This document shows, piece by piece, positions 8,706 through 24,572 of a stretch of 64,000 bases of DNA; position 1 is the stretch's first letter; the number at the start of each line of letters is the position of its first letter. Below the pieces are notes generated by a model. The model ran no database searches and was not told where the DNA came from. It was given only the letters and a program-made list of their open reading frames with translations. The DNA comes from Chloroflexota bacterium (GTDB lineage Bacteria > Chloroflexota > Anaerolineae > UBA4142). The DNA lies in NCBI GenBank assembly GCA_037440625.1, contig JBBITT010000001.1:133913-197912 (forward strand), in the 5' to 3' direction. A program made the translations under genes and the position numbers.

Positions 8706-10133
8706 TTACGCTAGATCGTGCAGCGCAAGACGCGCGGCGTGATAGCCGCACATGCCATGCACGCCGCCGCCCGGCGGCGTTGACGACGAGCAAAGATAAA
8801 TGCCTTTTGCCGGCGTACGATAGGGGTGCAAACTCCATGTGGGCCGTGTGTAGAGTTGCCGCAAGTCTGCCGCGCCGCCATTAATGTCGCCGCCGATGTA
8901 GTTGTTGTTGTGTGTTTCGAGCCACGCCGGCGTCATCGTATGTTGCGCCATAATGCGATCACGAAACCCCGGCGCAAATCGTTCGATTTGTGCGATCATT
9001 CGCTCGGTCATATCGAAGGTCGAACCGTTGGGCACGTGGCAGTATGCCCAAACGGTGTGCTTGCCAGCCGGCGCGCGCGTTTGATCGAACAGTGTTTGTT
9101 GCACGACGAGGATGTACGGTTTTTCCGGCGGCTTGCCCTCCGCCGTCTCGCGTTCTGATTGCGCAATCTCGGCGAGGGTGCCGCCCACATGCACAGTCCC
9201 CGCGCGTTTGCATGTCTCCGCTTTCCACGGGATCGGACCGTCCAACGCAAAATCGAGTTTGAACACCCCCGCGCCGTACCGGAATTTTTCAAGCGTGCGA
9301 CGATAACCATCGGGCAAGCGCTTGCCCGCAATCTTGAGCAACTGCTTGGGCGTTACGTCGAACAAGTATGCGCGCGCGTTGGGTAATTCATCAATGGATT
9401 CAACGCGATGATTCACCACGATTTCGCCGCCGAGCGATTGAAAATATTTGCCCAGCGCGTTCGCCAGATTTTGCGAACCGCCTTTGATGAGGGGCCAGCC
9501 GGAAACGTGGGCGGCAACGCCTAACGCCAAGCCATATGCGGCGGTCGTCAAATTTTCCAACGGCAACATGGTATGCGCGGCGATGCCGGCAAACAAACCG
9601 CGCGCGTGTTCATCGCTGAAAAGAAATTCCGCAAGCAGGCGCGCCGGCACGATAGCAGGGAGTGCAAAACGCGCAAATGTGAACGGATGACGCGGCGGAA
9701 GCGGCAAGGGTCCTAGCAAATCTTGATTCAACTTGTCGGACTCGCGGACGAGCGGCTCGATCAAGCGACGATAATTCGCTCCATCCTTACCGAGCGTGGC
9801 GCATGTTGCCTCAATCGAACGATAAAGTACCGCCGCCGTACCATCGTCGAGCGGGTGGGCGAGTGCGGCATCGGGATAGATCAACTCGACGCCCTGGTCG
9901 GCGAGCGGAATCGTTTTGAAAAATGGCGAGACAACGGTGAGCGCCTGCACGGTCGAACACATATCGTGAACGAAACCTGGGAGCGTCAACTCAGCGGAGC
10001 GAATGCCACCGCCAATTGTTTCGTTCGCTTCGTATACCACGACCGAATGTCCCGCGCGCGCGAGGGTAATCGCGGCGGCAAGCCCATTCGGTCCCGCGCC
10101 GATGATGATAGCGTCATATTTTTCGCGTGACAT
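8706..10133 (-). CDS. Phytoene-desaturase-family (CrtI-like, COG1233) NAD(P)/FAD oxidoreductase
   Basis: YDAIIIGAGPNGLAAAITLARAGHSVVVYEANETIGGG dinucleotide fold and C-terminal GGGVHGMCGY. ATG at 10133 is preferred over TTG at 10172. Confidence 0.75.
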   Translation of the reverse strand: MSREKYDAIIIGAGPNGLAAAITLARAGHSVVVYEANETIGGGIRSAELTLPGFVHDMCSTVQALTVVSPFFKTIPLADQGVELIYPDAALAHPLDDGTAAVLYRSIEATCATLGKDGANYRRLIEPLVRESDKLNQDLLGPLPLPPRHPFTFARFALPAIVPARLLAEFLFSDEHARGLFAGIAAHTMLPLENLTTAAYGLALGVAAHVSGWPLIKGGSQNLANALGKYFQSLGGEIVVNHRVESIDELPNARAYLFDVTPKQLLKIAGKRLPDGYRRTLEKFRYGAGVFKLDFALDGPIPWKAETCKRAGTVHVGGTLAEIAQSERETAEGKPPEKPYILVVQQTLFDQTRAPAGKHTVWAYCHVPNGSTFDMTERMIAQIERFAPGFRDRIMAQHTMTPAWLETHNNNYIGGDINGGAADLRQLYTRPTWSLHPYRTPAKGIYLCSSSTPPGGGVHGMCGYHAARLALHDLA

Positions 10134-10184
10134 TTTCAGATTGGATTTTATGCTGATTCTTTCTAACCGCAAATAAAGAGCAAA

Positions 10185-11384
10185 TTATTTTTTCTTCAAC
10201 CACAAACTCACACTTGCTGGTTGCATCGTTTCGTTCACCACGTTCAATAATTCCCCAGTCAACTTTTCCAACTCGACTTCATCGCGCACGGTCACCGCAA
10301 AACTTTCCAAGACTTTTTGTGCGTCGTACTTGCGGCGATAAAAGCGATGGTCAATGGTGTCTTGCACGCGGTTACGCAACGGGTTGAACAAGGCGGCAAT
10401 CACGAGTGTCGAGATGATAATCGCCAAATCGTCGCCAGCGCCCGTTATTGTGCGGAAAATTTGTTGCAGAACGACGACTGCGCCGAAATAAAATAACGCC
10501 AGTGTCGCGGTAATGATGGAGTAAATCAGGGTGCGGCGAATGAGGATGTCGATGTCAAAGAGTTGGTGGCGCACAATAGCGATGCCGATCGAGACCGGGA
10601 GAATGGAAAACGCAAGCGCCTCTTTGACACTCTCCCAGACACCGGGCAATTCATAGATGATGTCGCTAACTAGATACACGCCGAACAAGAGCGTTCCAAA
10701 GAAAAACCACTTGAGCTGTTTTCGTTCGACGCGGGTCGATTTGCGATAACGCACGATGATGGACAAAACTCCCACAAAGAGACTTGCAAAGAGCGTATAC
10801 ACGGCAACATTCGTCAACAGGGTGACAATCTCGCCGACCCACCCCTCAATGCCAAAGGGGTTTTCGATTGGAACCATCCCCGAAATCCCCGGCATCGCCC
10901 AACCGAGTCCAAGCGCGATGGCTAATGCCGCTAATGCAATCCAAGCGACCGGACGCCAGCGCCGCGAAGGAAGTTCTCCCGTCGGGAAAAGGTATAGCAC
11001 GAAAGAAAACATGGCAATCCCTAGAACCCATCCGATTCCCGCGAATGCCAATGCTTCTGCCGCCATCGGCAACGAACCCGGCTCAATCAGCATGCCATGC
11101 GTCACATAGGCAATCCCAAAGTTTTCCAAACAAAAACCTAATCCCAATGTGAGCCAAATCCAGCCATAAAGGTTGCGCGGCATCTTGAACGCAATCACCA
11201 TTCCAACGAGAACAGCTGGTAGTGCCGACAGTGCATAAACCAGGCGCGAATCGGTTTGATTGAATGCCTCAACCGTCAAAGTGGCTTCGCGCCCCATCCA
11301 GATCAAAACAATCGTTGCGCCGACCAGCAGAAAAGATACCGCTGTCAGCCCAACTACAAACGTGCGACGGTTTCGTTCCATCAT
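10185..11384 (-). CDS. Sensor-like polytopic membrane protein, paralog copy 1 (no kinase/output domain)
   Basis: Start moved to ATG 11384 (AGGAGAG 5 nt upstream). FPTGELPSRRWRP, ERKQLKW, DIDILIRRTLIYS, FNPLRNRVQDTIDHRFYRRKYDAQ and ETMQPASVSLWLKKK are shared with copies 2-4. Confidence 0.8.
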   Translation of the reverse strand: MMERNRRTFVVGLTAVSFLLVGATIVLIWMGREATLTVEAFNQTDSRLVYALSALPAVLVGMVIAFKMPRNLYGWIWLTLGLGFCLENFGIAYVTHGMLIEPGSLPMAAEALAFAGIGWVLGIAMFSFVLYLFPTGELPSRRWRPVAWIALAALAIALGLGWAMPGISGMVPIENPFGIEGWVGEIVTLLTNVAVYTLFASLFVGVLSIIVRYRKSTRVERKQLKWFFFGTLLFGVYLVSDIIYELPGVWESVKEALAFSILPVSIGIAIVRHQLFDIDILIRRTLIYSIITATLALFYFGAVVVLQQIFRTITGAGDDLAIIISTLVIAALFNPLRNRVQDTIDHRFYRRKYDAQKVLESFAVTVRDEVELEKLTGELLNVVNETMQPASVSLWLKKK

Positions 11385-11397
11385 TGTTTCTCTCCTG

Positions 11398-11452
11398 TCT
11401 TCTTGAGCCACAAACTCACACTTGCTGGTTGGGTGGTTTTGCACCAGTCAAC
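11398..11452 (-). pseudogene. Solo 3'-end remnant of a fifth paralog directly upstream of copy 1
   Basis: 11408-11431 is 24/24 identical to 10200-10223, the 3' coding end of copy 1. It reads QPASVSLWLKKT in another frame. CCAGTCAAC further upstream also matches, with an internal deletion between. Confidence 0.6.
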
Positions 11453-11525
11453 GGACAAGCGCGGCGAGGATGAGTGAAATCATCATCACCGCGCTGAATT
11501 GCAAACCCACTCAGTATCACACTTA

Positions 11526-12287
11526 TTACTTCTGCATCCCACGCTTGAACACATTGGCGAGCCACCGAAACGGCGTGAGCAACAAATAGACGACGGTCCA
11601 AAACGCGGCGTTCTTGAAAATGTTGGTCCACTTGCCCCACTGAACTTTGGGGTCGATGACATCTTTCTTCGCTTCGACGCGTGCTTCAACGCCAAGATGT
11701 TTCGCCAGCGCGGTCAACACGTGTGTCCACGTTTTGTCCTGCTGCTGCGATGAGCCAAAGAATCGATAAAAGAGTTCGTACAGCGGGTCGCTGGCGCGCA
11801 CCATTGGTTGGACTTGCGCGAACGCGACGCCGTCTTCCTCAAACGCGCTGAACGTGTTCCACCCGGCTTCGGGAAATCCTTCCGGCGTCATCACCGTGAA
11901 TGAGGTGTCGTCCGCGTAGAGAATCATCACGCCCGCGGCGACCGGCATTATCGCGGGCATTCCCGGAAACGGCGGAACCTTGCCGTCGATAAGAATGATG
12001 CTTCCCGGCTTGATGCCTTGCATCGATGGATAGAAATGATTTTCCGGCGGCTGGAACTTGGGAAAGTTTTCCTTCCACACTTGCATCACTTGCGCCGCCG
12101 ACATCTTGACACCATCGAGTCGGACGCGGTACGTTTTTTGCACGAGTTGTCCAAAGCCCTGAAGCGGACTCTGAACTTGGTGCCCATCGACGTTTATATT
12201 TGTCGCGCCCGCCGGCACGTCGGTCACTTTTAACTTATCGACCGGTTGCGCCCAGTTGCCGGCATCGCGCGGTTGATTTTGAGTCAT
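11526..12287 (-). CDS. Hypothetical protein with C-terminal TM helix (possibly DUF1990-like)
   Basis: 253-aa ORF on the operon strand, ATG at 12287. C-terminal hydrophobic helix AAFWTVVYLLLTPF. Family assignment is uncertain. Confidence 0.5.
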   Translation of the reverse strand: MTQNQPRDAGNWAQPVDKLKVTDVPAGATNINVDGHQVQSPLQGFGQLVQKTYRVRLDGVKMSAAQVMQVWKENFPKFQPPENHFYPSMQGIKPGSIILIDGKVPPFPGMPAIMPVAAGVMILYADDTSFTVMTPEGFPEAGWNTFSAFEEDGVAFAQVQPMVRASDPLYELFYRFFGSSQQQDKTWTHVLTALAKHLGVEARVEAKKDVIDPKVQWGKWTNIFKNAAFWTVVYLLLTPFRWLANVFKRGMQK

Positions 12288-12304
12288 TAGTTTTTCCTGT
12301 TTCT

Positions 12305-12350
12305 GCCACAGGCAGAGAGCGCAAAGTTTTTTCTTTGTGATCCCTGTGGC
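12305..12350. repeat. Degenerate copy of the CCACAGnGATCACA hairpin element
   Basis: 8-bp inverted termini GCCACAGG/CCTGTGGC. On the reverse strand CCACAGGGATCACAAAG resembles CCACAGAGATCACAGAA at 24583-24599. Confidence 0.4.
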
Positions 12351-12736
12351 TAATCTGCTTTGAGCCGTATCAACCCGCCGATGTAATGCGGATCGACCTT
12401 GAACGTAATTCCCGATCCCGCGATCTTGCTCATCTTTTCTAGCGTCGCGGGATTCGGCGTTCCAAAAATCTCGATACTGATTGGCTCGATAAACTCGTAC
12501 GTTTTCTTCGAACGTTTGTCCGCGCCTTGCAACTGCTGATCGAGCGCATCCGCGTTTGGAAAAACACGTACGATGGTTACTTCGGTCGCATCGGCGTTTT
12601 CGTAGGCGAGTTGCGCGAGCGTGTTGGATTTGTTCGCTTCGATAGTCGGCACGCTGTTGTGATAGTGCGTCCGAAACTCATCGGCCTTGTCTGGCTTGAT
12701 ACGATTGCGGCTGATGAACACGATTGGGGCAGTCAT
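12350..12736 (-). CDS. Hypothetical small protein (possible ABM / dimeric alpha-beta-barrel fold)
   Basis: 128 aa, starting 6 nt after the SRPBCC stop. The pattern resembles antibiotic-biosynthesis-monooxygenase-like domains. Weak call. Confidence 0.45.
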   Translation of the reverse strand: MTAPIVFISRNRIKPDKADEFRTHYHNSVPTIEANKSNTLAQLAYENADATEVTIVRVFPNADALDQQLQGADKRSKKTYEFIEPISIEIFGTPNPATLEKMSKIAGSGITFKVDPHYIGGLIRLKAD

Positions 12737-12742
12737 CTGTGC

Positions 12743-13183
12743 CTACATTTCGGATTCGATCAACTGCTTGATGTTACGCGCGCTCCGCTCCACCATACCT
12801 GTAATCCAACTCTTCATCGATTCATCCATATCGGGAAACTCTGCGTGGATCGTGAGCGTTGTTTGCTTTTCGTTTTCAACCTTAAAGGTCACCCACCCGC
12901 GCGTCACGCTCGGACCGTCGTGAATTTTCACTCCGATAATTTTGTTGCGTTCAAATTCCACGACCTCCATCGTGCCATCAACGGGCGTCCCGCTGTGAGT
13001 GTTGCGTCTACGAATGACCGTCCCGACGCCGATTGGTCCCTCAGATATTTGTTCGAGTTGCATGTCGGGATCCCAGCGCGGATGATTGCGGACATGCTCA
13101 TCGGCGTAGAAATGAAACACCTTGTCGATGGGGCGGTCGATCACTTGCGAAACTTGAAGTTGGACTGGCATATATTTCTCCAT
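12743..13183 (-). CDS. SRPBCC (polyketide cyclase/START-like) ligand-binding protein
   Basis: 146 aa. IDRPIDKVFHFYADEHVRNHPRWDP is the typical SRPBCC N-terminus. The start overlaps the STAS stop (TAATG). Confidence 0.7.
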   Translation of the reverse strand: MEKYMPVQLQVSQVIDRPIDKVFHFYADEHVRNHPRWDPDMQLEQISEGPIGVGTVIRRRNTHSGTPVDGTMEVVEFERNKIIGVKIHDGPSVTRGWVTFKVENEKQTTLTIHAEFPDMDESMKSWITGMVERSARNIKQLIESEM

Positions 13184-13527
13184 TACACATTTGCAACGGC
13201 TTGCGCTTCGGAATCGAAAATCTTGATCGCTTCGTTGAGCCGCGTCAGCGCAAAGATTTGCTTGTAATGATCGTTCAAGCCGTACGCCAGCAATTTTTGC
13301 TTCAGACGATTGGCGCGGATTAACATCGTTACCAGCAAGCCGATGCCGGAACTGTTCATATATTCCAGTCCACTAAAGTTCAAGACGACGCCGCGTGTGC
13401 CGTTACTCGCTTGAGTGTACGCATCGGTCAAGATGTTTTCGGCGGCGGCGGTTACCTCGCCTTGGATGTCAATGATGCCCACTGCGCCCACTTGCCGTAC
13501 GTTCATCAATACTTTGGCATTTGCCAT
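13183..13527 (-). CDS. STAS-domain anti-sigma-factor antagonist (SpoIIAA/RsbV-like), copy 1
   Basis: VLNFSGLEYMNSSGIGLLV contains the phosphorylatable Ser context. 114 aa. Confidence 0.8.
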   Translation of the reverse strand: MANAKVLMNVRQVGAVGIIDIQGEVTAAAENILTDAYTQASNGTRGVVLNFSGLEYMNSSGIGLLVTMLIRANRLKQKLLAYGLNDHYKQIFALTRLNEAIKIFDSEAQAVANV

Positions 13528-13602
13528 TTTGCTCCTCTCCCGGAATTGGAATTTGTTGTGCTCGAATTTTTTCTTGATCCATCAGAACGCAAGTCAAAGT
13601 AG

Positions 13603-13643
13603 GAAGGCGGAAGTATGAAAGATTTTTTCATACGTCATCCTTC
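13603..13643 (-). other. Composite hairpin in the 121-nt spacer between the two STAS genes
   Basis: GAAGG/CCTTC outer stem plus GTATGAAA/TTTCATAC inner stem with a 5x5 internal loop. Lies 5 nt after the STAS-2 stop. No clear U-tract. Confidence 0.3.
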
Positions 13644-13648
13644 TGAAT

Positions 13649-14002
13649 TCATTCTTTATTTCCCAGCGCCGACGCTTCATCGGGAAAGACGGTCATAAAA
13701 TCCGAAAGGCGCGTGATTCTGAAAATCTCTTGGTAATGCTCACTCAAGCCGTAAACTAACAAACGAATGCCAGCGCGCCGCGCATTCGCCAGGATGCCGA
13801 CGATGAGCGCGATCCCTTTACTGTTGATGTAATCCACGTCGGTAAAATTCAAGATGATGGTTTGGGGGTTTTCGCGGGTGGCTTGGGTGTACGCTTGATT
13901 CAGCAAGGGTTCTTCGGCAAAGGCATCAATTTCACCGTGCAAATCAATGATGGCGGTGTGATTGACATACCGCACCTGGGCGCGAAATTCTCTAGTTTGC
14001 AT
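13649..14002 (-). CDS. STAS-domain anti-sigma-factor antagonist, copy 2
   Basis: ILNFTDVDYINSKGIALIV retains the Ser. The start overlaps the PP2C-kinase stop by 11 nt. Confidence 0.8.
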   Translation of the reverse strand: MQTREFRAQVRYVNHTAIIDLHGEIDAFAEEPLLNQAYTQATRENPQTIILNFTDVDYINSKGIALIVGILANARRAGIRLLVYGLSEHYQEIFRITRLSDFMTVFPDEASALGNKE

Positions 14003-15602
14003 ATTTACCTTCTTTCAAATTTAGCACGAGTTCAAAGGTGTTGCTATCGTCGCTAGGAATGATATTCATTTCGTCTACCAGATTCTTGATGAGGAACAAA
14101 CCCCAGCCACGCGGCGATTGCAAGCCGGCAAGTTTCGCTTCCAAATCTGGGGTGGGGGTGTTGGGGATTTCTTGCCGCCCGCCTTGATCGGTGATGCGAA
14201 CTGCCAATTGCCCGGCTGATTTCATCACGCGAATCGTCACCACCAAGTCGCCCCGATTTTGGTTGCCATATTCGATGGCGTTCATGGTAGCTTCGGCGAC
14301 GGCCGTCTTGAGTCGTTCGAGGCGCTCGGTGGATAGACCCAGGGGGCTCACCGCTTCTTCGACGCCCCGCATCGCGATGCGTTCATTGCCCGGCTCGCTG
14401 GGAATTGTAAAATCGGCGATGGTGATCCAATCGCGCGCCGCTTGCGCGCGCTGGCTTGGCGCACGATGATCGTGTCGCACGGCGACGAGTGTCACATCGT
14501 CTTCCTGTTCCCAGCCGGGTTCGGTGAAACTTGCCAGATCGTCCAACAACGAACGAATCAACGCCGTGCCCTCGTGATCGCGAATCGTGACCAATAATTT
14601 TTGCAATCGCGGAAAACCGTACATTTCGCGTTGGGGGTTGTGCGCTTCAACCAAGCCGTCGGTGTACATCAACAAACTATCGCCCGGTTCTAGCACCGTT
14701 TCTTTTTCTTCGTACTTCATTCCCGGCATCAAACCGAGCGGCATGCCGGTCGCGCGCAACTCTTCGACCTGCTCACGGCAGCGACGGTACGGCAGATCGT
14801 GTCCCGCGTTGGCGTATTGCAATTTGCCGGTGGACGGATCGAGAATGGCGTAGAGGCAAGTGATGAACATCGACGGCGGAATTTCCGGGCAAATCAAATC
14901 GTTTGAGCGTTCGAGCGCCGCACCGGGCGATAACATCCGGCGCGATGCGCCGCGCAAAATTGCGCGCGTCGTCGCCATCACGAGCGCGGCGGGCACGCCT
15001 TTGTCCGTCACATCGCCGATGACGATGACGAGCCGTCCGTCCGGGCGTTCGTAGCAATCGTAGAAATCGCCGCCGACCGCGCGCGCGGGTTGATAATGCG
15101 TGGCGATTTGCCAGCCGTCGATCTTCGGCAATTCTTTCGGCAAAAGTGTTTGCTGAATCAAACGCGCGACTTGAAGTTCTTGCGCCAAGCGCTCCATCTC
15201 GCGTGCTTCGATTTGTTGTTGCCGCACGAGTTGCGCCACGCGCACGGCGGGCCCGGCTTGACTGGCGAGGTTGTTGAGCAACCCGCGATCATCGCTGGAG
15301 TAATCTTGCTCGCTGAGACGCGGACCCAGATTCAACAACCCGACGAGTTCGCCTTGACTGACAAGTGGCACTGCCAAACGAACGCCGGCAGTCTTGAGCG
15401 CACGCAACATCGGCGAATCAAAGTTGAGACCCGCCGCATCGAACACGCCGGGATGACCTTGTAAAAAAATCGTGAGCGGATCGTTCGGCGTAATGTCGAA
15501 CGCGCGGATAGCGTCCGGTGGTAATGGACGCGGCGGCGGCGTGGGTGACGATACCATTTCTTGGGAATTGGTTTTGGAAAATCGAGTAATGTTTTTTATC
15601 AT
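13992..15602 (-). CDS. GAF-like / PP2C (SpoIIE) phosphatase / RsbW-type HATPase fusion protein
   Basis: VPLVSQGELVGLLNLG (GAF-like), AVGGDFYD...VIGDVTDKGVPAAL...TDGLVEA (PP2C) and C-terminal EATMNAIEYGN...VRITDQG (anti-sigma kinase fold). Confidence 0.8.
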   Translation of the reverse strand: MIKNITRFSKTNSQEMVSSPTPPPRPLPPDAIRAFDITPNDPLTIFLQGHPGVFDAAGLNFDSPMLRALKTAGVRLAVPLVSQGELVGLLNLGPRLSEQDYSSDDRGLLNNLASQAGPAVRVAQLVRQQQIEAREMERLAQELQVARLIQQTLLPKELPKIDGWQIATHYQPARAVGGDFYDCYERPDGRLVIVIGDVTDKGVPAALVMATTRAILRGASRRMLSPGAALERSNDLICPEIPPSMFITCLYAILDPSTGKLQYANAGHDLPYRRCREQVEELRATGMPLGLMPGMKYEEKETVLEPGDSLLMYTDGLVEAHNPQREMYGFPRLQKLLVTIRDHEGTALIRSLLDDLASFTEPGWEQEDDVTLVAVRHDHRAPSQRAQAARDWITIADFTIPSEPGNERIAMRGVEEAVSPLGLSTERLERLKTAVAEATMNAIEYGNQNRGDLVVTIRVMKSAGQLAVRITDQGGRQEIPNTPTPDLEAKLAGLQSPRGWGLFLIKNLVDEMNIIPSDDSNTFELVLNLKEGKYAN

Positions 15603-15611
15603 CTTGCCTCT

Positions 15612-15656
15612 CTTGTACCAAACTATCGTTCAGAAAACGTTACGGAAAGCGTTACG
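15612..15656 (-). promoter_or_regulatory. Triple-heptamer direct repeat plus TA-hexamer in front of the PP2C operon (candidate SARP operator/promoter), site A
   Basis: Plus strand: CGTTCAG 15627-33, CGTTACG 15638-44, CGTTACG 15650-56 (spacing 11 and 12 nt). TACAAG on the minus strand (15612-17) lies 9 nt beyond the last heptamer. 28/36 identical to site B. Confidence 0.55.
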
Positions 15657-15683
15657 GGAATTTAGTTCAATAGTTGAAAAGTT

Positions 15684-15756
15684 CGATAGTGCGATAGTTG
15701 CTTGGTCGTATCCTTAACCATCAAACGATTGCACTAACGCACTATTGCACTATTTT
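15684..15756 (-). repeat. ATAGT/ACTAT octamer palindromic element straddling the stop codon of paralog 2
   Basis: Tandem octamers TCGATAGT-GCGATAGT pair (8+4 bp) with ACTAACGC-ACTATTGC-ACTATTTT. Same architecture as 21554-21630. On the minus strand CTTTTC follows. Confidence 0.55.
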
Positions 15757-17006
15757 TTAAGCCACAAACTGACATGCGTCGGTTGCATCGTTTCATCAAC
15801 GACGCGCAGTAACTCGCCCGCCAATTTTTCCAATTCGACTTCGTCGCGTACCGTCGCCGCAAATTGGGCGAGGATTTTCTGTGCATCGTACTTGTGGCGA
15901 TAGAATCGCTGGTCAATCCAATTTTGCACCCGCTCACGGAGTGGGTTGAACAACGCGGCGATAACGAGCGTTGAAATGATGATTGCCAAATCGGATGATT
16001 GTCCAGTGAGGATACGGAACACTTGCTGTAGCAAAATGATGATTGCCATGTAGACAATGACCAAGTTCGCGGTCAGCACACCATAGATCAAGGTGCGGCG
16101 GATAATAATGTCAATGTCCCACAGCCGATAGCGCAGAATGGAAAATCCAAGCGCGATAGGAATTAGCAGAATAGACCAAGCAAATAACGGTACGCCGATG
16201 AGGTGGTACAAAATATGCGCGCTGCCCGGCGTTTGTAAAGCCGGGATGACCAACGCGGAACCGATGTACATTGAAATACCGGTGGCAGATCCGGCAAACG
16301 CAAACACTACCCACTTGGTCTGCTGGCGTTCGGTGGGGGTTGCCATATACCGATAACGATACAATTGCACGATCACGCCACTGATAAACATGAGGGCAAA
16401 AGCCGAAACGGAAAAACGGACATCCAGATCGAACAAGTTGATGCGGCGGTCGAACAGCGAGAGAAACGAATAGGTGAGGAGGATTGGCGCGGCAAAGCGG
16501 GTAATGCGCGGGACAAACTGACCATCGGGAAAAAGATAGAAACAGATAAAGAACGCACTCCATCCGAACGCTTGGAGCGCGTGCACCGGTGTCTCCAAAA
16601 TCGAACCGGGGACATCGAGGGCGCGGATCGTGCTGGGAATGATTGCGCCAAAGACGATGAGTGTCAGCGAGGCAAAGAGTGCAAGGGGTTCATCGGTCTT
16701 GCGCCAAAAGATCATCAAGCCGATGCTGCTAAAGGCAAGCAGAAACAGACATTCCAGCACTATAAAGTACCACGCGTACGCTTCGAGGGGGATGCTCAAG
16801 CGGGCTAACAATACCGCTTCGTACGCCGCGAGTTGGGCATTCCAATCATTGCCCACGGGCGTTGTCGTCAAGAGTTGTTTCCAACGGGCGGGAAGCGCGA
16901 GGATGAACAAACTATACGTCGTGACGACAAGGGTGGCCCAAACGCCGCGGGCTAGGATGAGACGCCAACCACGCAAATGAATTGTTACCCCATCACGAAA
17001 AAACAT
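15750..17006 (-). CDS. Sensor-like polytopic membrane protein, paralog copy 2
   Basis: ATG at 17006 with GAGGGGGAG RBS. IFWRKTDE, FPDGQFVPRITRF, ERQQTKW, RYRLWDIDIIIRRTLIYG, FNPLRERVQNWIDQRFYRHKYDAQ, ETMQPTHVSLWLKK. Confidence 0.85.
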   Translation of the reverse strand: MFFRDGVTIHLRGWRLILARGVWATLVVTTYSLFILALPARWKQLLTTTPVGNDWNAQLAAYEAVLLARLSIPLEAYAWYFIVLECLFLLAFSSIGLMIFWRKTDEPLALFASLTLIVFGAIIPSTIRALDVPGSILETPVHALQAFGWSAFFICFYLFPDGQFVPRITRFAAPILLTYSFLSLFDRRINLFDLDVRFSVSAFALMFISGVIVQLYRYRYMATPTERQQTKWVVFAFAGSATGISMYIGSALVIPALQTPGSAHILYHLIGVPLFAWSILLIPIALGFSILRYRLWDIDIIIRRTLIYGVLTANLVIVYMAIIILLQQVFRILTGQSSDLAIIISTLVIAALFNPLRERVQNWIDQRFYRHKYDAQKILAQFAATVRDEVELEKLAGELLRVVDETMQPTHVSLWLKK

Positions 17007-17019
17007 TGCTCCCCCTCGC

Positions 17020-18462
17020 TTATTCGGTGCGCGCTTCCCATTCAGCGCGAGGTATCTCTCCCAGCATACGCCATGGCGGAGCGAGCGGCAGCACGCCTAA
17101 TTCTTTGACGATGCGCCGTGCGGCAATCCCGACGATTGCCGCGTACGTGGGATACGCGATTTCCAATTCGGCCAATTGCTCCACCCAAATATCCGCCGCC
17201 ATTCCCGCCGCAATCAATTGCACAATTTCAACGGCTTGTTCACCGACGACGTGAGCACCTAGAATGCGATGCGTTTCGGTTGAGACGATGAGTTTGCAAA
17301 ACCCTTCGATGTGATCGTCAATCACCGCCCGATCCACATCGGCATAGGGCACCTCCGTGATGATACAGTCCGTTTGCGCACGGGCGCGTGCTTCAGTCAA
17401 GCCAACGCCGGCATATTCCGGATCCGTGAATCCGCCGTGGGGTACGAGCAAATGTTGGTACGGCAAACCCAGACCCAGCACCGCGTTCTCCGCCGCGATG
17501 CGTCCTTCGTAACTTGCGCTTTGGACTAGCATCATTCGTCCGGTGATGTCGCCCGCCGCAAAAATATTTTCCGCCGATGTTTGTTGATAATCGTTCACGG
17601 CGATGTAGCCGCGTTCGGTGGTTTGCACGTTCGCCGCGGCGAGATTCAAGTTTTCGATATTCCCCACCCAGCCGATGGCTTGGAGGACGCCTTCTGTTTT
17701 GAGCGTCGTGGTTTCGCCGTTATGTGCATACTCGACGTGAAATTCATTCCCGATTTTGTTGATGCGTTGCACGGTGACATTGGTCGTGATGGCGATTCCC
17801 CGCCGGTGAAACGCTTGCGTGATCGAGCGCGGAATCATTTCATCTTCTGTCCCAAGAATTTGCGGGTGTGCTTCGAGAATATGCACGGGCGCGCCGAATG
17901 CGGCGACGATAGAGGCAAGTTGACACCCCGTGGCTGCCCCACCAATGACGACAACCGAGCGCGGCAAATTTTTCATCGCCCAGACCTGGCTGTGGGTGAG
18001 CGCGTGTTCGCCGCCGGAAATTTTTAACTGGCGGGCATGCCCACCCGCGCAGATGATAAAGCGGTCCGCGTGGAAACGCGCGCCATCATCCAATTGAATC
18101 GTTTGCGTGTTGATGAATTGAACATTGCCGACACTTTCCAAGACACGAATCCCGGTGCGTTGAAAATGGCTGAGCAATTGTTTCTTTTCGTGTAAACGAT
18201 ACACCTTTTGTTGCGCGTTCGATAACGCGCGTGCGAAATCAATGGTCGGCGCGTCGGCATACAGACCATATTCGGCAAAATGATTCGCTTCGCGCGCTAG
18301 CCGTGCGGCTTTTGCCAGCACGCGCGTTGGCGCACAACCATCGTTCGTACAAGTCCCGCCCAACCGGCCGCGTTCGATGAGTGTGACATTCGCGCCGAGT
18401 TCACGCGCGCGCAATGCGGCAGTTACACCACCGGGTCCACCACCGATAACGATAACATCCAT
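17020..18462 (-). CDS. Pyridine nucleotide-disulfide oxidoreductase (class I, dihydrolipoyl-dehydrogenase-like, atypical)
   Basis: ATG at 18462 (GAGGA RBS). VIVIGGGPGG; redox-active GGTCTNDGC (CxxxxC). The C-terminal dimerisation region reads AYPTYAA where lipoamide dehydrogenases have HPTLSE. Confidence 0.8.
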   Translation of the reverse strand: MDVIVIGGGPGGVTAALRARELGANVTLIERGRLGGTCTNDGCAPTRVLAKAARLAREANHFAEYGLYADAPTIDFARALSNAQQKVYRLHEKKQLLSHFQRTGIRVLESVGNVQFINTQTIQLDDGARFHADRFIICAGGHARQLKISGGEHALTHSQVWAMKNLPRSVVVIGGAATGCQLASIVAAFGAPVHILEAHPQILGTEDEMIPRSITQAFHRRGIAITTNVTVQRINKIGNEFHVEYAHNGETTTLKTEGVLQAIGWVGNIENLNLAAANVQTTERGYIAVNDYQQTSAENIFAAGDITGRMMLVQSASYEGRIAAENAVLGLGLPYQHLLVPHGGFTDPEYAGVGLTEARARAQTDCIITEVPYADVDRAVIDDHIEGFCKLIVSTETHRILGAHVVGEQAVEIVQLIAAGMAADIWVEQLAELEIAYPTYAAIVGIAARRIVKELGVLPLAPPWRMLGEIPRAEWEARTE

Positions 18463-18519
18463 ACTCTTATCCTCGAATAAACCGGGAATCAAGGGAAATG
18501 AAGGAAGCGGCGGGTTCCC

Positions 18520-19707
18520 CTAGTTCCCTTGTTTCTTCAACCACAAACTCACCGTGGTCGGTTGCATCGTCTCGGTCACGACGCGCAACAATTCGCCCAC
18601 CAACTTTTCCAGTTCGACTTCATCGCGCGCGGTTGCCGCAAATCGTTCGAGGACTTGTTGCGCATCGTACTTGCGGCGATAGAAACGGTGGTCAATCGTA
18701 TCTTGCACGCGATGGCGCAGCGGATTGAACAATGCAGCAATCGCCCAAGTCGAAACGATGATTGCTAGATCATCGCCGGCGCCGGTGAGCGAACGGAAAA
18801 GTTGTTGCAGGACAATAACACTGCCGAAATAAAACAGCGCGAGCAAGGCGGTAATGATCGAATAGATCAGCGTGCGACGAATGAGAATATCAATCTCGAA
18901 CAGACGATAGCGTAGGATCGCGAGCGTGAACGCGAGTGGCTGGATGCTCAACGCAACCCACCAACCCACGCCGTTCAACACCGCCCACCACGGGATTTCA
19001 CTTGGCGGCAAGTTTTGCACGTAATAGTACGGGATGCTTACGAGCGTCAGCAAACCATATGATAGCGCAAAACCGTACACGACCCATTTGGTCTGTTGAC
19101 GTTCGAGCAAATCGTACACCCGGCGATAGCGGTAGAATTGAATGCCGAGCGCAAGGATCAACATGGCGGCGATAATGGCATACATGATTTGTGCCGCAAG
19201 CGAATTCACGCGAATGATTTCATCGGCATCGGGAATGACGACGAACGCCGACAACGCGACTAGTACGGTGAGCGGAACGAGCCAGCGGGTCCAACGCGGC
19301 GCAAATCGTCCGTTGGGAAAAACGAGAATCAGAATTAACGTGGGCAGTGGGAAGCTTGCCGCTTGGATGACCAGCGCGAGATTTTCTGCGGAAGCAAACC
19401 AGAACGGCAGGAACATTTCAAGGGGACCCGCCAGAAATACCCCATACATCAATAAATACCAGGCGAGGAACAATGCCATCGCATCATTCGGTTTTCTGAC
19501 AAACAACAGCCCTGCCAGCGCAAGGCACAGCACCGCGCAACCAACCGACACGGACACACCCAGCCACGTCGCAAATAGTTGAATGGCAGAGAATTCAGCG
19601 GTCAAGTTAATCTCATTCACATGCTTCCAATACCCAGGAAGCGAACCGAACAAGATCGCCAACGATGCGATGAAGGTCGTACGCCACAACCAACGCGCAA
19701 TCTTCAC
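18520..19707 (-). CDS. Sensor-like polytopic membrane protein, paralog copy 3
   Basis: GTG start abuts the cNMP-protein stop (TAAGTG), with AAGGTGG RBS. FPNGRFAPRWTRW, ERQQTKW, RYRLFEIDILIRRTLIYS, ETMQPTTVSLWLKK. Confidence 0.85.
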   Translation of the reverse strand: MKIARWLWRTTFIASLAILFGSLPGYWKHVNEINLTAEFSAIQLFATWLGVSVSVGCAVLCLALAGLLFVRKPNDAMALFLAWYLLMYGVFLAGPLEMFLPFWFASAENLALVIQAASFPLPTLILILVFPNGRFAPRWTRWLVPLTVLVALSAFVVIPDADEIIRVNSLAAQIMYAIIAAMLILALGIQFYRYRRVYDLLERQQTKWVVYGFALSYGLLTLVSIPYYYVQNLPPSEIPWWAVLNGVGWWVALSIQPLAFTLAILRYRLFEIDILIRRTLIYSIITALLALFYFGSVIVLQQLFRSLTGAGDDLAIIVSTWAIAALFNPLRHRVQDTIDHRFYRRKYDAQQVLERFAATARDEVELEKLVGELLRVVTETMQPTTVSLWLKKQGN

Positions 19708-20121
19708 TTATCCACCTTCGGCATTCGTCTCGCCTTTTTCCGTCAAGTGATCTAATTCTTGTTTGAGTAATGTCATCTCCTGACTCAGCTCGCGGATGCG
19801 GCGCGACATCAATTGAAACAAGCGATACGCGAGCGACGGGTCTTCGTGGATGCGGCGCATGAAATTTTTCTTGTCGATGGTTAAGGCGCGCACTTGGCTC
19901 AACGCGCGCGCCGTCGCGTGTTGCACTTCTTTCTCAAAGATCGCCATTTCGCCCAGAAACTCGCCCGCGCTCCGCACGCCGAGAAACGTCTCTTGTCCAT
20001 TTTGCTCGCGCACGAGCGCAATCTGTCCTTCTTGAATGACGAACATACACTCGCCCACCTCGCCTTGACGAATCAAGATGTCACCCGGCTGGTACAATTT
20101 GCCCAACGTGTTTTGTTCCAT
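19708..20121 (-). CDS. Stand-alone cyclic-nucleotide-binding domain protein (no HTH)
   Basis: ATG at 20121 with GGAGGAG RBS. GDILIRQGEVGECMFVIQEG...GEFLGEMAIF...ATARA is the CNB beta-barrel. Only a ~35-aa helix follows it. Confidence 0.8.
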   Translation of the reverse strand: MEQNTLGKLYQPGDILIRQGEVGECMFVIQEGQIALVREQNGQETFLGVRSAGEFLGEMAIFEKEVQHATARALSQVRALTIDKKNFMRRIHEDPSLAYRLFQLMSRRIRELSQEMTLLKQELDHLTEKGETNAEGG

Positions 20122-20175
20122 CGACTCCTCCACTGCGTAACGGTAGCCTGCGATGGGCAATCACACTGGATTGCC

Positions 20176-21543
20176 CTACACGTTCTCATGCTTGCTGGTC
20201 CACGTGCCGACCTGTTCGCGCGGATGGATGAGCGCGACAAATAAATCCCAGATCAGACGCACGATGAACAAGGGATGCAACATCCGCACAAAAATTTCCT
20301 TGTACGGTGCGCTCCCTGTGAACATATCCCACATCACCATACTCATTCGCTTGGGGCGCTCGGTTTTCTTTTGCTCGTACGCGGTCATTCGCACCAGCGC
20401 GCGGCGCGCAAATGCCCATTGCTGAAGAATGCTCGTCACGAAGAAAATAAATTTGCCGATCAAGTTATCGTTTTCGATCCGCCGACACGCGGGCGCATAG
20501 TAACGCTGAAAATCTTCTTTGGCAATGCCCTCGAAAATTGCGGTGGTCGCGGCGGCTTTGGCGGCGCGATACGCCGCGCCGATGCCGTCTTTGTACAAGC
20601 GGGTCACGCCGCAATCGCCGATGAACACGATGCGGTCGCCGAACGGTTGCGTCGCGCCATCGACGGTCATCCGCGGCTGGCACTGGCACGGCGGTGAATC
20701 GAGTGCGACGCCCGGCGGCATCAAGTTGGCGAACGTTGGGCTGTGCACAAATGCTTTGACGAGATCGTTATCAATTTCGTGACCCAGCATCGCGAGCGTC
20801 ACATAATCGCCTTTCGGGACAAGCATCGCAAATTCCAGACGCGGCAAGTTGAGTAGAAAGACGTGCATCGAACTGCCGAGATATTTCGCGATCGTTTCCT
20901 CGCCGAGTTTATATTCGCGGATGAACGTTTTAGTCGTGCGCGGCGGTTTGTATTCGATGCCTAGTTTCTCGATCAATTTGAGTGCGGCGGTGTTCACGCC
21001 GGTCGTCACCGCAATCAAATCGTACATTTGCGTGTTGCCTTTTGCTGTGACAGCGAGCCGGTCTTCTTGCCGTTCGATGTTTTCGACGCGCGCGCGAATC
21101 ATCTGCGCGCCTTTGTCCATCGCCAGTTTCTGCAAATGCCCGTCGAAACTTTCCCAGCGAAATTCTTTGAGATCGCGCGGACCCGGACCGCGAAAGACCG
21201 ACGCGATTCTTTTTTCGCGCAACGGCGTGTCAATGCGAACCGAGCCGGTGTCGGTGTGAAGCACGTACGAATCAACGCCGCGCTGAACGACGTTCGTCGG
21301 CAGGATGATGCCCTCGGTCGAAAGATTTTGCACGAGCGATTCGGAAATCACGCCGCCGCACATATTGCAACCGGGCGGACCGGGAATTGTGAAATCGCGC
21401 GGCTCGTAAACATTGACGTGAAGGTCCAAGCCAACGCGCTCCGCCATATCGAGCAAAAAGTAGGTGAAGAAGGAACCGGCAGGACCGCACCCCATCACCG
21501 CCACGTGCGAGCCGTCGGTTAGTTTGAAATTTTCGTTGGTCAT
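20176..21543 (-). CDS. FAD-dependent oxidoreductase (geranylgeranyl-reductase-like fold) with hydrophobic C-terminal extension
   Basis: VAVMGCGPAGS dinucleotide motif, CNMCGGVIS and FIGDCGVTRLYKDGIG. GGAGG RBS at 21548-21552. Confidence 0.7.
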   Translation of the reverse strand: MTNENFKLTDGSHVAVMGCGPAGSFFTYFLLDMAERVGLDLHVNVYEPRDFTIPGPPGCNMCGGVISESLVQNLSTEGIILPTNVVQRGVDSYVLHTDTGSVRIDTPLREKRIASVFRGPGPRDLKEFRWESFDGHLQKLAMDKGAQMIRARVENIERQEDRLAVTAKGNTQMYDLIAVTTGVNTAALKLIEKLGIEYKPPRTTKTFIREYKLGEETIAKYLGSSMHVFLLNLPRLEFAMLVPKGDYVTLAMLGHEIDNDLVKAFVHSPTFANLMPPGVALDSPPCQCQPRMTVDGATQPFGDRIVFIGDCGVTRLYKDGIGAAYRAAKAAATTAIFEGIAKEDFQRYYAPACRRIENDNLIGKFIFFVTSILQQWAFARRALVRMTAYEQKKTERPKRMSMVMWDMFTGSAPYKEIFVRMLHPLFIVRLIWDLFVALIHPREQVGTWTSKHENV

Positions 21544-21553
21544 TGTTCCTCCG

Positions 21554-21630
21554 AGTGCAATAGTTCGATAGTGTGTTAGTGCGATAATTGAAAACTCGCA
21601 CGTCTAACTATCGAACTATTGCACTATTTA
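21554..21630 (-). repeat. ATAGT/ACTAT octamer palindromic element straddling the stop codon of paralog 4
   Basis: Perfect 19-bp inverted repeat 21554-21572 / 21607-21625 with an inner 6-bp stem GTGCGA/TCGCAC. The downstream arm ends 2 nt from the RBS of the next gene. Confidence 0.65.
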
Positions 21631-22886
21631 ACTTTCTTGAGCCACAAATTCACGCTCGTCGGTTGCATCGTCTCGCTCACCACGTTCAGTAACTCGCCGG
21701 TCAACTTTTCCAACTCGACTTCATCGCGCGCAGTGATCGCAAATCGTTCCAACACTTTTTGCGCGTCGTACTTGCGGCGATAAAAGCGATGGTCAATGGC
21801 ATCTTGCACGCGATGGCGCAGCGGATTGAACAACGCGGCAATCGCCAAAGTCGAAACAATGATTGCTAGATCATCGCCTGCCCCCGTAAGCGCGCGCAAG
21901 AATTGTTGCAAGATGACGACTGCGCCAATGTAAAACAGCGCAAGCAACGCCGTCAGAATCGAATAGATCAACGTGCGGCGAATGAGGATGTCGATATCCC
22001 AGAGGCGATAGCGCAAAATCGCTATAGCGATTCCGAGCGCAAGCGCGAGATAACTTGCCAAGCCAGTCGGAAAAACCACTAGAAGCATGAACGCGAGTCG
22101 CTCGGGGGACGGTTGTGACGGAGCGTAGATCGTAGAGGTGAAGGTGAACGGTACGAGTCCAAGAATTGGCGCCAAGAGACTTCCCATCAGCCATTTGGTT
22201 TGCTGTCGCTCGATCGCATTCGAAATCCGCGCATACCGATAGATGATGGAGTAAATCGCCGCGCAAAACCAAACCGCGCCCCCCACCAAAATTCCGAACG
22301 AAGCCATCGGATTCTCTTTCTCACCCAAAGTGGTGATAATCATTTGCGGGACAAGCGAAATGACAAGGATCGGAACAAATATCCACCGCGTCCAGCGCGG
22401 CTCAAAGCGGCCGGTCGGAAAAACAAACGGCAAAAGATAGTAACCGATTGCGGCAATGGGATACAGTGCATACACAATAATTTGAAATACGCCGAGATTT
22501 TGCACCCCTTCTACCGCAAACGAAACCAGTGTCAGGGACAAGAGCCACGCGAGCCAATCATCGGAACGGCGCCAGAAAATAATCAAACCGATAACGATAA
22601 ACGCTCCATACGTTAGGATACTTCTCCCAAAGTACATCATCCGAATCAGCGCTTCTGACATCCCCATTTTTTGCGCGATCCCCACGTCTTCTTGACTGAG
22701 ACTCCAGGGTCCGCAAGCGGCTTCAAGAGTCGTACAGTGTGGCAAGGGCTCGCCCAACGCGATGCCCATACTCGCGATGAACGCCGTGATCGCCACGCCG
22801 GCGCACACAAACCACGCCGCGCGTGCGATACTAAGCCAGGGCTGATGCAAAGTTGTGTTGGATTGACTCACCTTACATCGCTCCAT
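21624..22886 (-). CDS. Sensor-like polytopic membrane protein, paralog copy 4
   Basis: ATG at 22886 overlaps the methyltransferase 3' end by 14 nt (alternative GTG at 22871). IFWRRSDD, FPTGRFEPRWTRW, ERQQTKW, RYRLWDIDILIRRTLIYS, ETMQPTSVNLWLKK. Confidence 0.85.
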   Translation of the reverse strand: MERCKVSQSNTTLHQPWLSIARAAWFVCAGVAITAFIASMGIALGEPLPHCTTLEAACGPWSLSQEDVGIAQKMGMSEALIRMMYFGRSILTYGAFIVIGLIIFWRRSDDWLAWLLSLTLVSFAVEGVQNLGVFQIIVYALYPIAAIGYYLLPFVFPTGRFEPRWTRWIFVPILVISLVPQMIITTLGEKENPMASFGILVGGAVWFCAAIYSIIYRYARISNAIERQQTKWLMGSLLAPILGLVPFTFTSTIYAPSQPSPERLAFMLLVVFPTGLASYLALALGIAIAILRYRLWDIDILIRRTLIYSILTALLALFYIGAVVILQQFLRALTGAGDDLAIIVSTLAIAALFNPLRHRVQDAIDHRFYRRKYDAQKVLERFAITARDEVELEKLTGELLNVVSETMQPTSVNLWLKKVK

Positions 22887-23478
22887 TTTCGCGCGTCATC
22901 AAATACGCCGCTTCGCCGCGGAGCCAGCCACTCGCGTTCTGCCGCGCCATCACTTGCTCAATCGAAAAGAAATCGCCGAACCGGCGTTGCGCTTCACCCG
23001 GCTCTAGTGCCATTCGTTCGTGAATGCCGAACGCGCGCTCCCACCAACGCGGCGTCCACTCGAAACAATAGAGTAAGAACTGACTGCCCGGGTGCGTCAG
23101 TGGCAAAATATTTTTCACGTACAGATCGCGGTCTCGGTTCGGCAAATCGTCCAGCACGCCGTAATCAATGAGCAGATCGAACGTGCCGCTAACGTAGCGC
23201 AAATTCGTGAGATCGTCTACAACAAAAGTCGCGTTGACACCGGCGTCGTGCGCGCGTTTACGTCCCAAGGCGATTGCCGCTTGCGCGAAATCAACGCCGG
23301 TCACATCGAACCCACGTTGCGCGAGAAAGAGGGCGTTGCTTGCCGTGCCGCTTCCCAAGTCAATCGCGCGGCACGGTTTCAGGCGTCCGCTTTCGACGAG
23401 TTGCACAAGTTCCGCGCGCGGTCCAATATCCCACGGCGCGCGGAATCGGCTGTACAAAATTTCGTAGAACCATTTCAT
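22873..23478 (-). CDS. Class I SAM-dependent methyltransferase
   Basis: ATG at 23478 with GGAGG RBS. Motif I AIDLGSGTASNA, then DVTGVDF. Confidence 0.75.
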   Translation of the reverse strand: MKWFYEILYSRFRAPWDIGPRAELVQLVESGRLKPCRAIDLGSGTASNALFLAQRGFDVTGVDFAQAAIALGRKRAHDAGVNATFVVDDLTNLRYVSGTFDLLIDYGVLDDLPNRDRDLYVKNILPLTHPGSQFLLYCFEWTPRWWERAFGIHERMALEPGEAQRRFGDFFSIEQVMARQNASGWLRGEAAYLMTRENGAM

Positions 23479-23527
23479 CACGCACCTCCCAGAGACCAGG
23501 TTTCTTGAGGACACCCCGTCTTGAGAC

Positions 23528-23965
23528 TTACTGGTCGGCTTCCAATAACTCTTTGAGTTTCTGGTAATCAGACTCGAATTGTTTCTTGGATTGGCTGACC
23601 ACCATTCCTTCTGCCAATTTGAAAAACCCGCCCAATTCGGCGATCGTGGTTACTTTGACGGTCGTCGAACCACCGATGGATTCAAGTGTGGTGGTTTCTT
23701 CCATTGGGAAGGGACCCTTGAGCGACTTCCAGGCGTACCGCTTGGGTGGATCGTACTCGGTCACCTCGCCTTCGCTTTCGATCTTTTGTCCCAGAAACGT
23801 CGAAACAAACCGGTACTGACTGCCGACGCCCATCGGCGCGGGGGTGAGGATTTTGGATTCGATGACGCCGGTCATCCAACTCTTGTACGAATCGAAATTC
23901 GTCAGCGCCTTGAAGACATCGGCAGCAGGACGATGGATGGTAATACTAAATTCGAACGTTGCCAT
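23528..23965 (-). CDS. SRPBCC family ligand-binding protein
   Basis: 145 aa. FEFSITIHRPAADVFKALTNFDSYKSWM is the typical SRPBCC N-terminus. Confidence 0.7.
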   Translation of the reverse strand: MATFEFSITIHRPAADVFKALTNFDSYKSWMTGVIESKILTPAPMGVGSQYRFVSTFLGQKIESEGEVTEYDPPKRYAWKSLKGPFPMEETTTLESIGGSTTVKVTTIAELGGFFKLAEGMVVSQSKKQFESDYQKLKELLEADQ

Positions 23966-23986
23966 TTGAAATCTCCTTGTGGTTCA

Positions 23987-24017: not shown

Positions 24018-24026
24018 TTGGTATTC

Positions 24027-24530: not shown

Positions 24531-24572
24531 TCAGACCCCGAAGGTCTGGGTAACTCGTGTCACGCGGTCAAC

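Follow-up and report, generated by a model that had tools for sequence, protein, structure and literature searches.

Two 36-nt blocks in a 64,000-nt stretch of a Chloroflexota bacterium genome (contig JBBITT010000001.1, positions 133,913 to 197,912; from here on the window, about 55% GC) most probably act as activator boxes of promoters that depend on a regulator of the SARP class (Streptomyces antibiotic regulatory protein), a reading of the sequence that comparative evidence supports. The blocks (15625-15660, site 1; 26660-26695, site 2) each hold three CGTTACG-type heptamers and precede two minus-strand operons whose promoters are 11 kb apart, and this triple repeat is probably the binding site of an AfsR-like SARP encoded beside site 2 (26815-29688, plus strand). 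SARPs have been studied almost only in Streptomyces, as switches of antibiotic clusters. For a large SARP-STAND subfamily of Chloroflexota and Rubrobacteria, a box is here defined down to the base pair, together with its predicted core promoter and recurring targets.

Counted position by position, the two blocks agree at 28 of 36 positions. On the plus strand both read CGTTCNG-N4-CGTTACG-N5-CGTTACG, with heptamers starting at 15627, 15638 and 15650 (site 1) and at 26662, 26673 and 26685 (site 2), that is, in steps of 11 and then 12 nt. Read on the minus strand, in the direction of the operons, this becomes CGTAACG-N5-CGTAACG-N4-CKGAACG-N9-TAnnnN. The distal (CGTAACG, 15650-15656), middle (CGTAACG, 15638-15644) and promoter-proximal (CTGAACG, 15627-15633) heptamers of site 1 would thus lie at about -51 to -45, -39 to -33, where a -35 element is expected, and -28 to -22, if 15617-15612 is the -10 element; the distal one is kept in two relatives described below (L001, L059). 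Their counterparts at site 2 are CGTAACG (26685-26691), CGTAACG (26673-26679) and CGGAACG (26662-26668). Nine nucleotides past the proximal heptamer, site 1 has the putative core promoter TGG plus TACAAG (15612-15620; a -10-like hexamer at 15617-15612 with a TGn extension) and site 2 the -10 hexamer TAAATT (26647-26652). A first-pass annotation had described the same identity, coordinates, layout and spacing, the two TA-initial hexamers and the operon starts at 15602 and 26617; recounting and inspection of the minus strand bore all of this out.

The arrangement is confined to these two places. When both strands of the 64 kb were searched for CGTTNNG-N4-CGTTACG-N5-CGTTACG with up to three mismatches, two matches were found against 0.02 expected (100 shuffles). 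Relaxed scans with two-heptamer patterns and with heptamer plus -10 patterns gave no convincing third site in the window, in line with the first-pass annotation, which had seen no third tandem copy by eye. The lone heptamer CGTTACG is not enriched (13 found, 8.8 expected), so the signal resides in the arrangement.

This layout agrees with the published rule for SARP targets, in which direct repeats lie 11 or 22 bp apart and the 3' repeat is 8 bp from the -10 element (PMC10936776). At both window sites the repeats follow an 11-bp period on one helix face, with the 12-nt step as a small departure, and the proximal repeat ends 9 nt before the hexamer when taken as a 7-bp core, or 8 nt when counted as 8 bp. 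Besides, the boxes appear to overlap or replace a weak -35 element, as SARP boxes do. In a consensus promoter and terminator scan, neither window site had a sigma-70-type -35/-10 pair on the minus strand, which fits activator dependence but is weak evidence by itself; the same picture emerges from the profile of 74 related sites presented below.

Conservation and the wider promoter family

The comparison drew on about 150 related loci, since neither the regulator nor the GAF-PP2C-kinase protein of the window had an exact match among recorded sequences. In a syntenic Logan contig (L001) whose regulator is 85% identical, the box is found at both corresponding promoters, namely upstream of the gene for the GAF-PP2C-kinase protein and, at a distance of 110 nt from the regulator gene, in front of the divergent DUF6789/cytochrome c operon. 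Both sites are also present in an Anaerolineae contig from a metagenome-assembled genome (MAG; L059/L070), in which the regulator is 65% identical, and the 11/12-nt heptamer layout is repeated in L001, L059 and L070 alike. The box is hence conserved upstream of the orthologous operons, and in the alignments with these relatives the heptamers and the core promoter are kept while the upstream intergenic DNA has diverged. At site 1, the spacing of the hexamer to both the heptamer and the ATG is conserved in L001 (TATAAG) and L059 (TACAAG), and the N-terminus of the GAF-PP2C-kinase protein is conserved across orthologs from its first codon.

Beyond these orthologs, one genome per species (185,579 species, 596 Gb) was scanned on both strands with CGTTNNG-N4-CGTTAC-N6-CGTTACG, a pattern with 18 specified bases. 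This returned 99 stretches, where arithmetic for 18 specified bases predicts about 17 by chance. Roughly 25 of the 99 were judged unrelated and kept out of the profile, leaving 74 unique sequences from Anaerolineae, Chloroflexia, Ktedonobacteria, Caldilineae, and Rubrobacteraceae or other Actinomycetota. Among the matches set aside were conserved coding sequence in Thermoguttaceae MAGs and GTAACG-rich arrays adjoining GATATAGATA-type tandem repeats (L031, L039/L054, L072, L084). The stretch shown is the same in two of the latter, from a Kosmotogaceae MAG (L039) and a WWE3 MAG (L054), an identity that suggests a mobile element common to both or contamination between bins.

A TAnnnT hexamer lies exactly 9 nt past the third heptamer in this family, its T, A and T being present in 69, 70 and 67 of the 74 sites, respectively. 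We regard this profile, which has 46 columns, as the key independent evidence, because the search had left those positions free. Downstream of TAnnnT follow a G-rich discriminator and a frequent CA, with Shine-Dalgarno sequences and start codons another 20-80 nt further on, and the 74-site profile has no -35 consensus 17 nt upstream of the -10 element. The fixed TAnnnT and the missing -35 therefore indicate that the block is part of a core promoter lacking a -35 element, the hallmark of promoters that depend on an activator. In the direction of transcription the consensus is CGTAACG, CGTAACG, CnGRACG, the two distal heptamers being best conserved and the proximal one most degenerate. Genes invariably follow downstream of the sites, whose orientation is fixed, and belong to a small recurring set of families; a GAF-PP2C-kinase homolog, for instance, is the first gene after the box in nine other loci.

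These data bear on whether the two blocks might resemble each other by chance, or be copies of a short mobile or dispersed repeat devoid of a regulatory role. In favour of such readings are the unremarkable count of lone heptamers in the window and several sites in the MAG K_2_bin.73 that share a longer upstream flank (CCAATATCCAATA...) and so look repeat-like. We consider both effectively refuted: the window holds two copies where 0.02 are expected, orthologous positions are conserved although their flanks have diverged, similarity is confined to the box and core promoter, and the block keeps a fixed relation to the -10 element and to start codons before the same gene families in two phyla. 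The dispersed repeat that the first-pass annotation had named as the outcome that would undo its proposal is thus not what the genomes hold, since the block recurs in promoter context, at a fixed distance from the -10 element.

In Rubrobacteraceae (L004, L018, L030, L075, L082 and others), the box-driven promoter reads TAGATTGGGGGCATG..., so that an ATG coincides exactly with the predicted start site; 30 nt downstream comes another ATG in the same frame, preceded by a Shine-Dalgarno sequence. The genes behind it begin with a membrane protein of about 140 aa without a Pfam match, followed by a PNPOx-like protein, and a homolog of the window's disulfide oxidoreductase (17020-18492) occurs in 12 loci. 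One Anaerolineae MAG carries at least six exact boxes (L010, L053, L065 with three sites, L068 and L071; MAGs K_2_bin.73 and D_2_bin.38). Several of its boxes share a longer upstream flank (TCYAATCTCCAATAYCCAATATCCACSTTT), and some boxes have GGCAGAT-type tandem repeats behind them, which suggests promoter duplication or an additional upstream element.

The regulator and its link to the box

The candidate activator is a large SARP of 957 aa (26815-29688, plus strand), composed of a predicted winged helix-turn-helix plus BTA part (residues 1-250), an AAA_16/STAND NOD and TPRs; its recognition helix reads ...ARASLRRTLSTL... Its open reading frame starts 119 nt from the site 2 block and runs divergently, as the first-pass annotation had indicated with about 120 nt, and Pfam returned the expected domains (BTAD, E=9e-21; AAA_16, E=1e-25; TPR_12, E=2e-14). 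When its first 260 residues were compared with the Protein Data Bank using phmmer, the best match was the SARP domain of AfsR (8hvr, E=1.5e-5, residues 14-238), while the full-length protein returned only designed TPR proteins. In an AlphaFold2 model of residues 1-239 (pLDDT 90.3), beta-strands, three helices and a hairpin are followed by further helices. A Foldseek search with this model retrieved AfsR from transcription-initiation complexes (8k60/8hvr; TM-score 0.71-0.74, E about 1e-11) and EmbR (2fez; TM-score 0.70), with no other fold below E=1e-3.

Orthology to AfsR itself was rejected: the NCBIfam equivalog NF053617 scored 69.7 bits against a cut-off of 1430, with the match on the TPR part only. 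Judged by its domains and modelled fold, the regulator is a member of a large STAND-type SARP family and not an AfsR ortholog. AfsR papers call SARPs mainly or predominantly actinomycete (PMC11301090 among them). Base composition and the closest homologs both point to Chloroflexota, probably Anaerolineae, as the origin of the window. The closest relatives of the window regulator come from Chloroflexota/Anaerolineae MAGs, and control of secondary metabolism is not apparent either, the target operons holding no biosynthetic core enzymes; an actinomycete host and a role in secondary metabolism are typical but non-defining traits of SARPs. The SARP-AAA-TPR family is very large in Chloroflexota (5790 matches at E<=1e-30), and a Rubrobacterales homolog (L018) carries the NOD and TPR domains too (AAA_16, TPR).

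Box and regulator were found to point to each other in both directions. Starting from the motif, tblastn with the first 260 residues detected a homolog in 23 loci that had been selected by motif, 49-87% identical across the DNA-binding and BTA domains. In the Chloroflexota loci its gene is divergent and 57-350 nt from the box, whereas in 11 Rubrobacteraceae loci it is convergent, 3.3-4.5 kb away, at the end of the box-driven operon. When all open reading frames of the 74 box loci were clustered, the SARP-AAA-TPR protein was the only recurrent DNA-binding protein (24 loci), and no response-regulator cluster was among them. Starting from the regulator, we took 80 metagenome loci chosen by homology of the N-terminal domain alone (51-62% identity). 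A three-heptamer box with at most 3 of 19 mismatches was present in 34 of them and in none of the shuffled controls, usually 30-280 nt upstream and divergent; among the 75 loci with at least 300 nt of upstream sequence, 29 had a divergent box within 450 nt. Without exception, the box is directed away from the regulator or lies downstream and converges on it.

The regulators that adjoin CGTTACG boxes all share ...DTRKA...ALRRTLSxL..., with the recognition helix LRRTLS. Variant helices LRRNLS, LRRALS/LRYALA and LRRDLS adjoin CGTTCCG/CGTTGTG, CGTTGCA and GGGAGGG repeats, respectively, with the same 11-12-nt periodicity, and the loci in question (L126, L150, L154, L179, L155) have arrays of three to four direct repeats upstream of the regulator start. 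Across these five loci, a small sample, the co-variation goes in the direction expected if the recognition helix reads the heptamer. In L155, TATACT follows the array, which is directed at the regulator gene.

Heptamers also occur in the regulators' own promoters. Twenty-nine of the 80 loci (23 unique) show CGTTACG-N22(21)-CGTTGCG-N18-[CT]ATAAT, at invariant spacing and 27-47 nt upstream of the regulator start (L116, L127, L149, L164 and 25 others of L102-L181), which suggests autoregulation. This site is found mostly in loci that have no divergent triple box, and it is absent from the promoter of the window regulator. Altogether, the first-pass description of the block as a candidate SARP regulon signature needs to be modified in one respect: the link to a SARP stood, but the signature is not local to this gene cluster, being shared by a large regulator subfamily in two phyla.

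Alternatives and proposed mode of action

Several observations weigh against the assignment of the blocks as SARP activator boxes. Over half of the regulator-selected loci have no recognisable box in the DNA examined, among them L002, which has a regulator 75% identical but neither the divergent operon nor a box within 17.6 kb, so a box beside the regulator gene is not universal. The co-variation of helix and repeat stems from the five variant loci. The regulator gave no match to Pfam Trans_reg_C at E<=1e-3, so that the winged helix-turn-helix assignment depends on its alignment with AfsR and on the modelled fold. A strict 11-bp period is broken by the 12-nt step from one distal heptamer to the other, and the core CGTWACG is near-palindromic, so that the orientation of protomers is unreadable from the sequence. 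At site 1, the -10-like TACAAG ends in G and the ATG at 15602 begins only 9 nt after it, so the mRNA would have to be leaderless or near-leaderless (a leader of 2-3 nt), which is unusual, and a Shine-Dalgarno-like GAGAGG also precedes this ATG. A leaderless mRNA is nonetheless plausible here, because the regulator's own promoter likewise places its ATG at the eighth nucleotide after the -10 element. At site 2, in comparison, the leader between TAAATT and the ATG at 26617 would measure about 23 nt and include the Shine-Dalgarno sequence GAGGAG. Finally, OmpR/PhoB-type response regulators use the same promoter geometry, and geometry alone therefore does not discriminate.

The features of site 1 would also suit a block that serves as a repression operator or roadblock, with the promoter further upstream and the repeats in the 5' leader: the block is only 22 nt from the ATG, the Shine-Dalgarno-like GAGAGG stands before the ATG, and TACAAG is imperfect. 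We consider this improbable. No sigma-70-like promoter is predicted upstream on the minus strand, where instead a long imperfect hairpin lies at the end of operon B; the hexamer-to-ATG spacing is conserved in three orthologs; and across the 74 sites, TAnnnT at a fixed 9 nt together with the missing -35 puts the box in the core promoter. Moreover, every BTAD-containing protein characterised so far acts as an activator (PMC10936776, PMC11301090).

The shared geometry raises a different question, namely whether the repeats might be bound by another winged-helix protein, for example a response regulator of OmpR/PhoB/MtrA type with its gene elsewhere, or by a paralogous SARP, the adjacency of the gene at 26815 then being incidental or a matter of co-regulation. 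PhoB/OmpR boxes consist of 7-bp direct repeats with an 11-bp period, on which winged-helix protomers sit head to tail and replace the -35 element about 10 bp upstream of the -10. A histidine kinase of Cache-HAMP type is present in the window (5322-7529), and the SARP-AAA-TPR family, with its 5790 matches, is so large and its recognition helix so nearly invariant that several paralogs per genome could share the box. Resemblance to OmpR-family binding has also been noted for AfsR (PMC11301090). Still, we deem another binder unlikely. The 74 motif-selected loci contain no recurring response-regulator family while the SARP recurs in 24; the search from regulator to motif succeeded, with orientation strictly divergent or convergent; repeat and recognition helix vary together; and the same heptamer stands in the regulators' own promoters in 29 of 80 loci.

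We thus favour binding by the neighbouring SARP and propose the following mode of action. The N-terminal domain of the regulator would most likely bind the repeats side by side, with one protomer per heptamer. The three heptamers would occupy about -51 to -22, the proximal one ending 9 nt before a TAnnnT-type -10 element and leaving no usable -35. In the afs box (-40 to -19), every 11-bp repeat is contacted over its first 8 bp, and the SARP dimer substitutes for the recognition of a poor -35 element by sigma region 4 (PMC10936776, PMC11301090). As the heptamers at -28 to -22 and -39 to -33 take these contacted places if the hexamers are set at -12 to -7, we infer AfsR-like activation rather than repression as the most likely outcome: the two promoter-proximal protomers would sit as AfsR does on the afs box, stand in for -35 recognition and bring in RNA polymerase that carries the primary sigma factor ('sigma adaptation'). 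A third protomer, on the distal heptamer, might add affinity or contact the alpha subunit's C-terminal domain, and the conserved distal pair and degenerate proximal heptamer would fit a cooperative filling of the weak proximal site. The ATPase/TPR part presumably gates activity on a signal, and the result would be co-induction of operon A, with its GAF-PP2C-kinase/STAS partner-switching genes, and operon B, which encodes membrane proteins, cytochrome c and flavin and disulfide oxidoreductases.

In kind, the SARP-box class is already known and the mechanism is not new. The nearest precedent is AfsR on the afs box of afsS in Streptomyces coelicolor (8hvr, 8k60, 8jke). AfsR shares the order of SARP domain, NOD/STAND and TPR and a length of about 960-990 aa, and its direct repeats lie on one helix face, the proximal one 8-9 bp away from the -10 hexamer, the next over a poor or absent -35. 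On the other hand, the SARP domains of AfsR and the window regulator are only about 22% identical, and the base-contacting T88 and R92 of AfsR align with R and T (alignment with 8hvr). The window box has three repeats instead of two, a spacing of 12+11 instead of 11 and the repeat sequence CGTAACG, and it belongs to a Chloroflexota host in which membrane, redox and partner-switching genes take the place of afsS and antibiotic clusters and for which no partner kinase of the Ser/Thr type was identified. The first-pass annotation had likened the block to SARP binding sites in general, which the published geometry, the AfsR/EmbR fold and the two-way association now support.

The small SARPs ActII-ORF4, DnrI and RedD likewise use 11-bp-spaced heptamer repeats over the -35 region, the last of them 8 bp from the -10, and sets of three heptamers have reportedly been described for some of their targets by Wietzorrek & Bibb (1997) and Tanaka et al. 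(2007). Unlike the window regulator, they have no ATPase or TPR part, read TCGAGCG-type heptamers and control one biosynthetic cluster each, whereas the window box is common to orthologous regulators across two phyla. PhoB/OmpR boxes such as the Pho box differ in that the window box comes without an associated receiver-domain regulator, the associated protein having BTA and a STAND ATPase instead. EmbR of Mycobacterium tuberculosis (2fez) shares the SARP-domain fold but carries an FHA domain in place of NOD-TPR, and no box of three heptamers is defined for its DNA sites. In the limited literature covered, we found no paper on SARP regulons outside actinomycetes or on the heptamer, and an earlier description is possible.

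More tentatively, and with chances that we put slightly below even, the box and its AfsR-like STAND regulator may represent an old, non-antibiotic regulon of two phyla (Chloroflexota and Rubrobacteria/Actinomycetota), in which a near-invariant helix (..ALRRTLS..) reads CGTAACG triplets and switches on a stress-type programme. Such a programme would comprise the GAF-PP2C-kinase/STAS module, disulfide and flavin oxidoreductases, cytochrome c and SRPBCC proteins, along with multiple copies of a kinase-less, sensor-like membrane protein of 420 aa. If so, the 'Streptomyces antibiotic regulatory proteins' would have specialised late within a general class of signal-gated activators, and the specificity code (T/N/A/D in the helix versus A/C/G at heptamer position 5) would be directly testable and perhaps engineerable. 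The box provides a usable position weight matrix for promoter and regulon annotation in phyla with little tested transcription, as well as a candidate helix-to-base specificity code. It further links a STAND sensor to a partner-switching module of PP2C, anti-sigma-like kinase and STAS proteins, and opens a test of whether the 'sigma adaptation' of AfsR applies outside actinomycetes.

Operons and other features of the window

All genes between about 8.7 and 26.6 kb lie on the minus strand. Operon A, presumably driven from site 1, spans 8706-15602 as judged from tight same-strand packing. It begins with a 536-aa GAF-PP2C(SpoIIE)-HATPase_c_2 fusion (13992-15602), followed by two STAS proteins, an SRPBCC, an ABM-like and a 253-aa protein and then by two further genes, for a 419-aa multi-transmembrane protein (10185-11444) and an FAD amine-oxidase-like protein (8706-10172). 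Operon B, presumably driven from site 2, would extend over 15750-26617 and is syntenic in L001. Its first part encodes a DUF6789-like membrane protein of 146 aa (the label comes from its L001 homolog), a 171-aa protein, a dihaem-type cytochrome c, a 167-aa protein, an SRPBCC protein and a methyltransferase. Next come a 420-aa transmembrane protein, an FAD geranylgeranyl-reductase-like protein, a cNMP-binding protein, a 395-aa transmembrane protein, the pyridine-nucleotide-disulfide oxidoreductase (17020-18492) and a 418-aa transmembrane protein. These domain assignments confirmed the operon contents given in the first-pass annotation. Just beyond operon A, the open reading frame at 5322-7529 (plus strand) encodes the Cache-HAMP-HisKA-HATPase sensor kinase.

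The regulator gene has a near-consensus promoter of its own, of sigma-70 type (TAGACA-18-TATAAT, 26778-26807, plus strand; 11 of 12 positions). Its ATG at 26815 is the eighth nucleotide after the -10 element, an arrangement also seen in L001, and the regulator mRNA is therefore predicted to be leaderless. A perfect palindrome, TAGACAA-TGT-TTGTCTA (26778-26794), overlaps the -35 element of this promoter and is not conserved in L001. Between the divergent promoters, directly upstream of the site 2 box, lies an imperfect inverted repeat of 17 nt (26696-26712/26729-26745).

A longer imperfect inverted repeat (15669-15706/15717-15754), with 38-nt arms that are 74% complementary, separates the stop of operon B from site 1. 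It is made of short ATAGTG/ATAGTT-type direct repeats and folds as RNA at -23.8 kcal/mol (z=-2.6). No T-run terminator was predicted at 15669-15754, and the element could be a terminator or an insulator between the operons. An RNA-element reading of the block near the site 1 start codon was dropped, as Rfam gave no RNA family in the window.

Finally, the multi-transmembrane proteins of the two operons include four paralogs of about 400-420 aa without a Pfam match, all encoded on the minus strand (10185-11444, 15750-17006, 18520-19707 and 21624-22886). They share a highly conserved cytoplasmic C-terminus (...RFYRRKYDAQKVLE..ELEKL.GELL.VV.ETMQP..VSLWLKK) and match, weakly, the NCBIfam model of the histidine kinase PrsK in its sensor/linker part, yet have no kinase domain. 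This is the commonest gene family near the box, with 91 copies at 46 of the 74 loci and up to four in tandem (L063).

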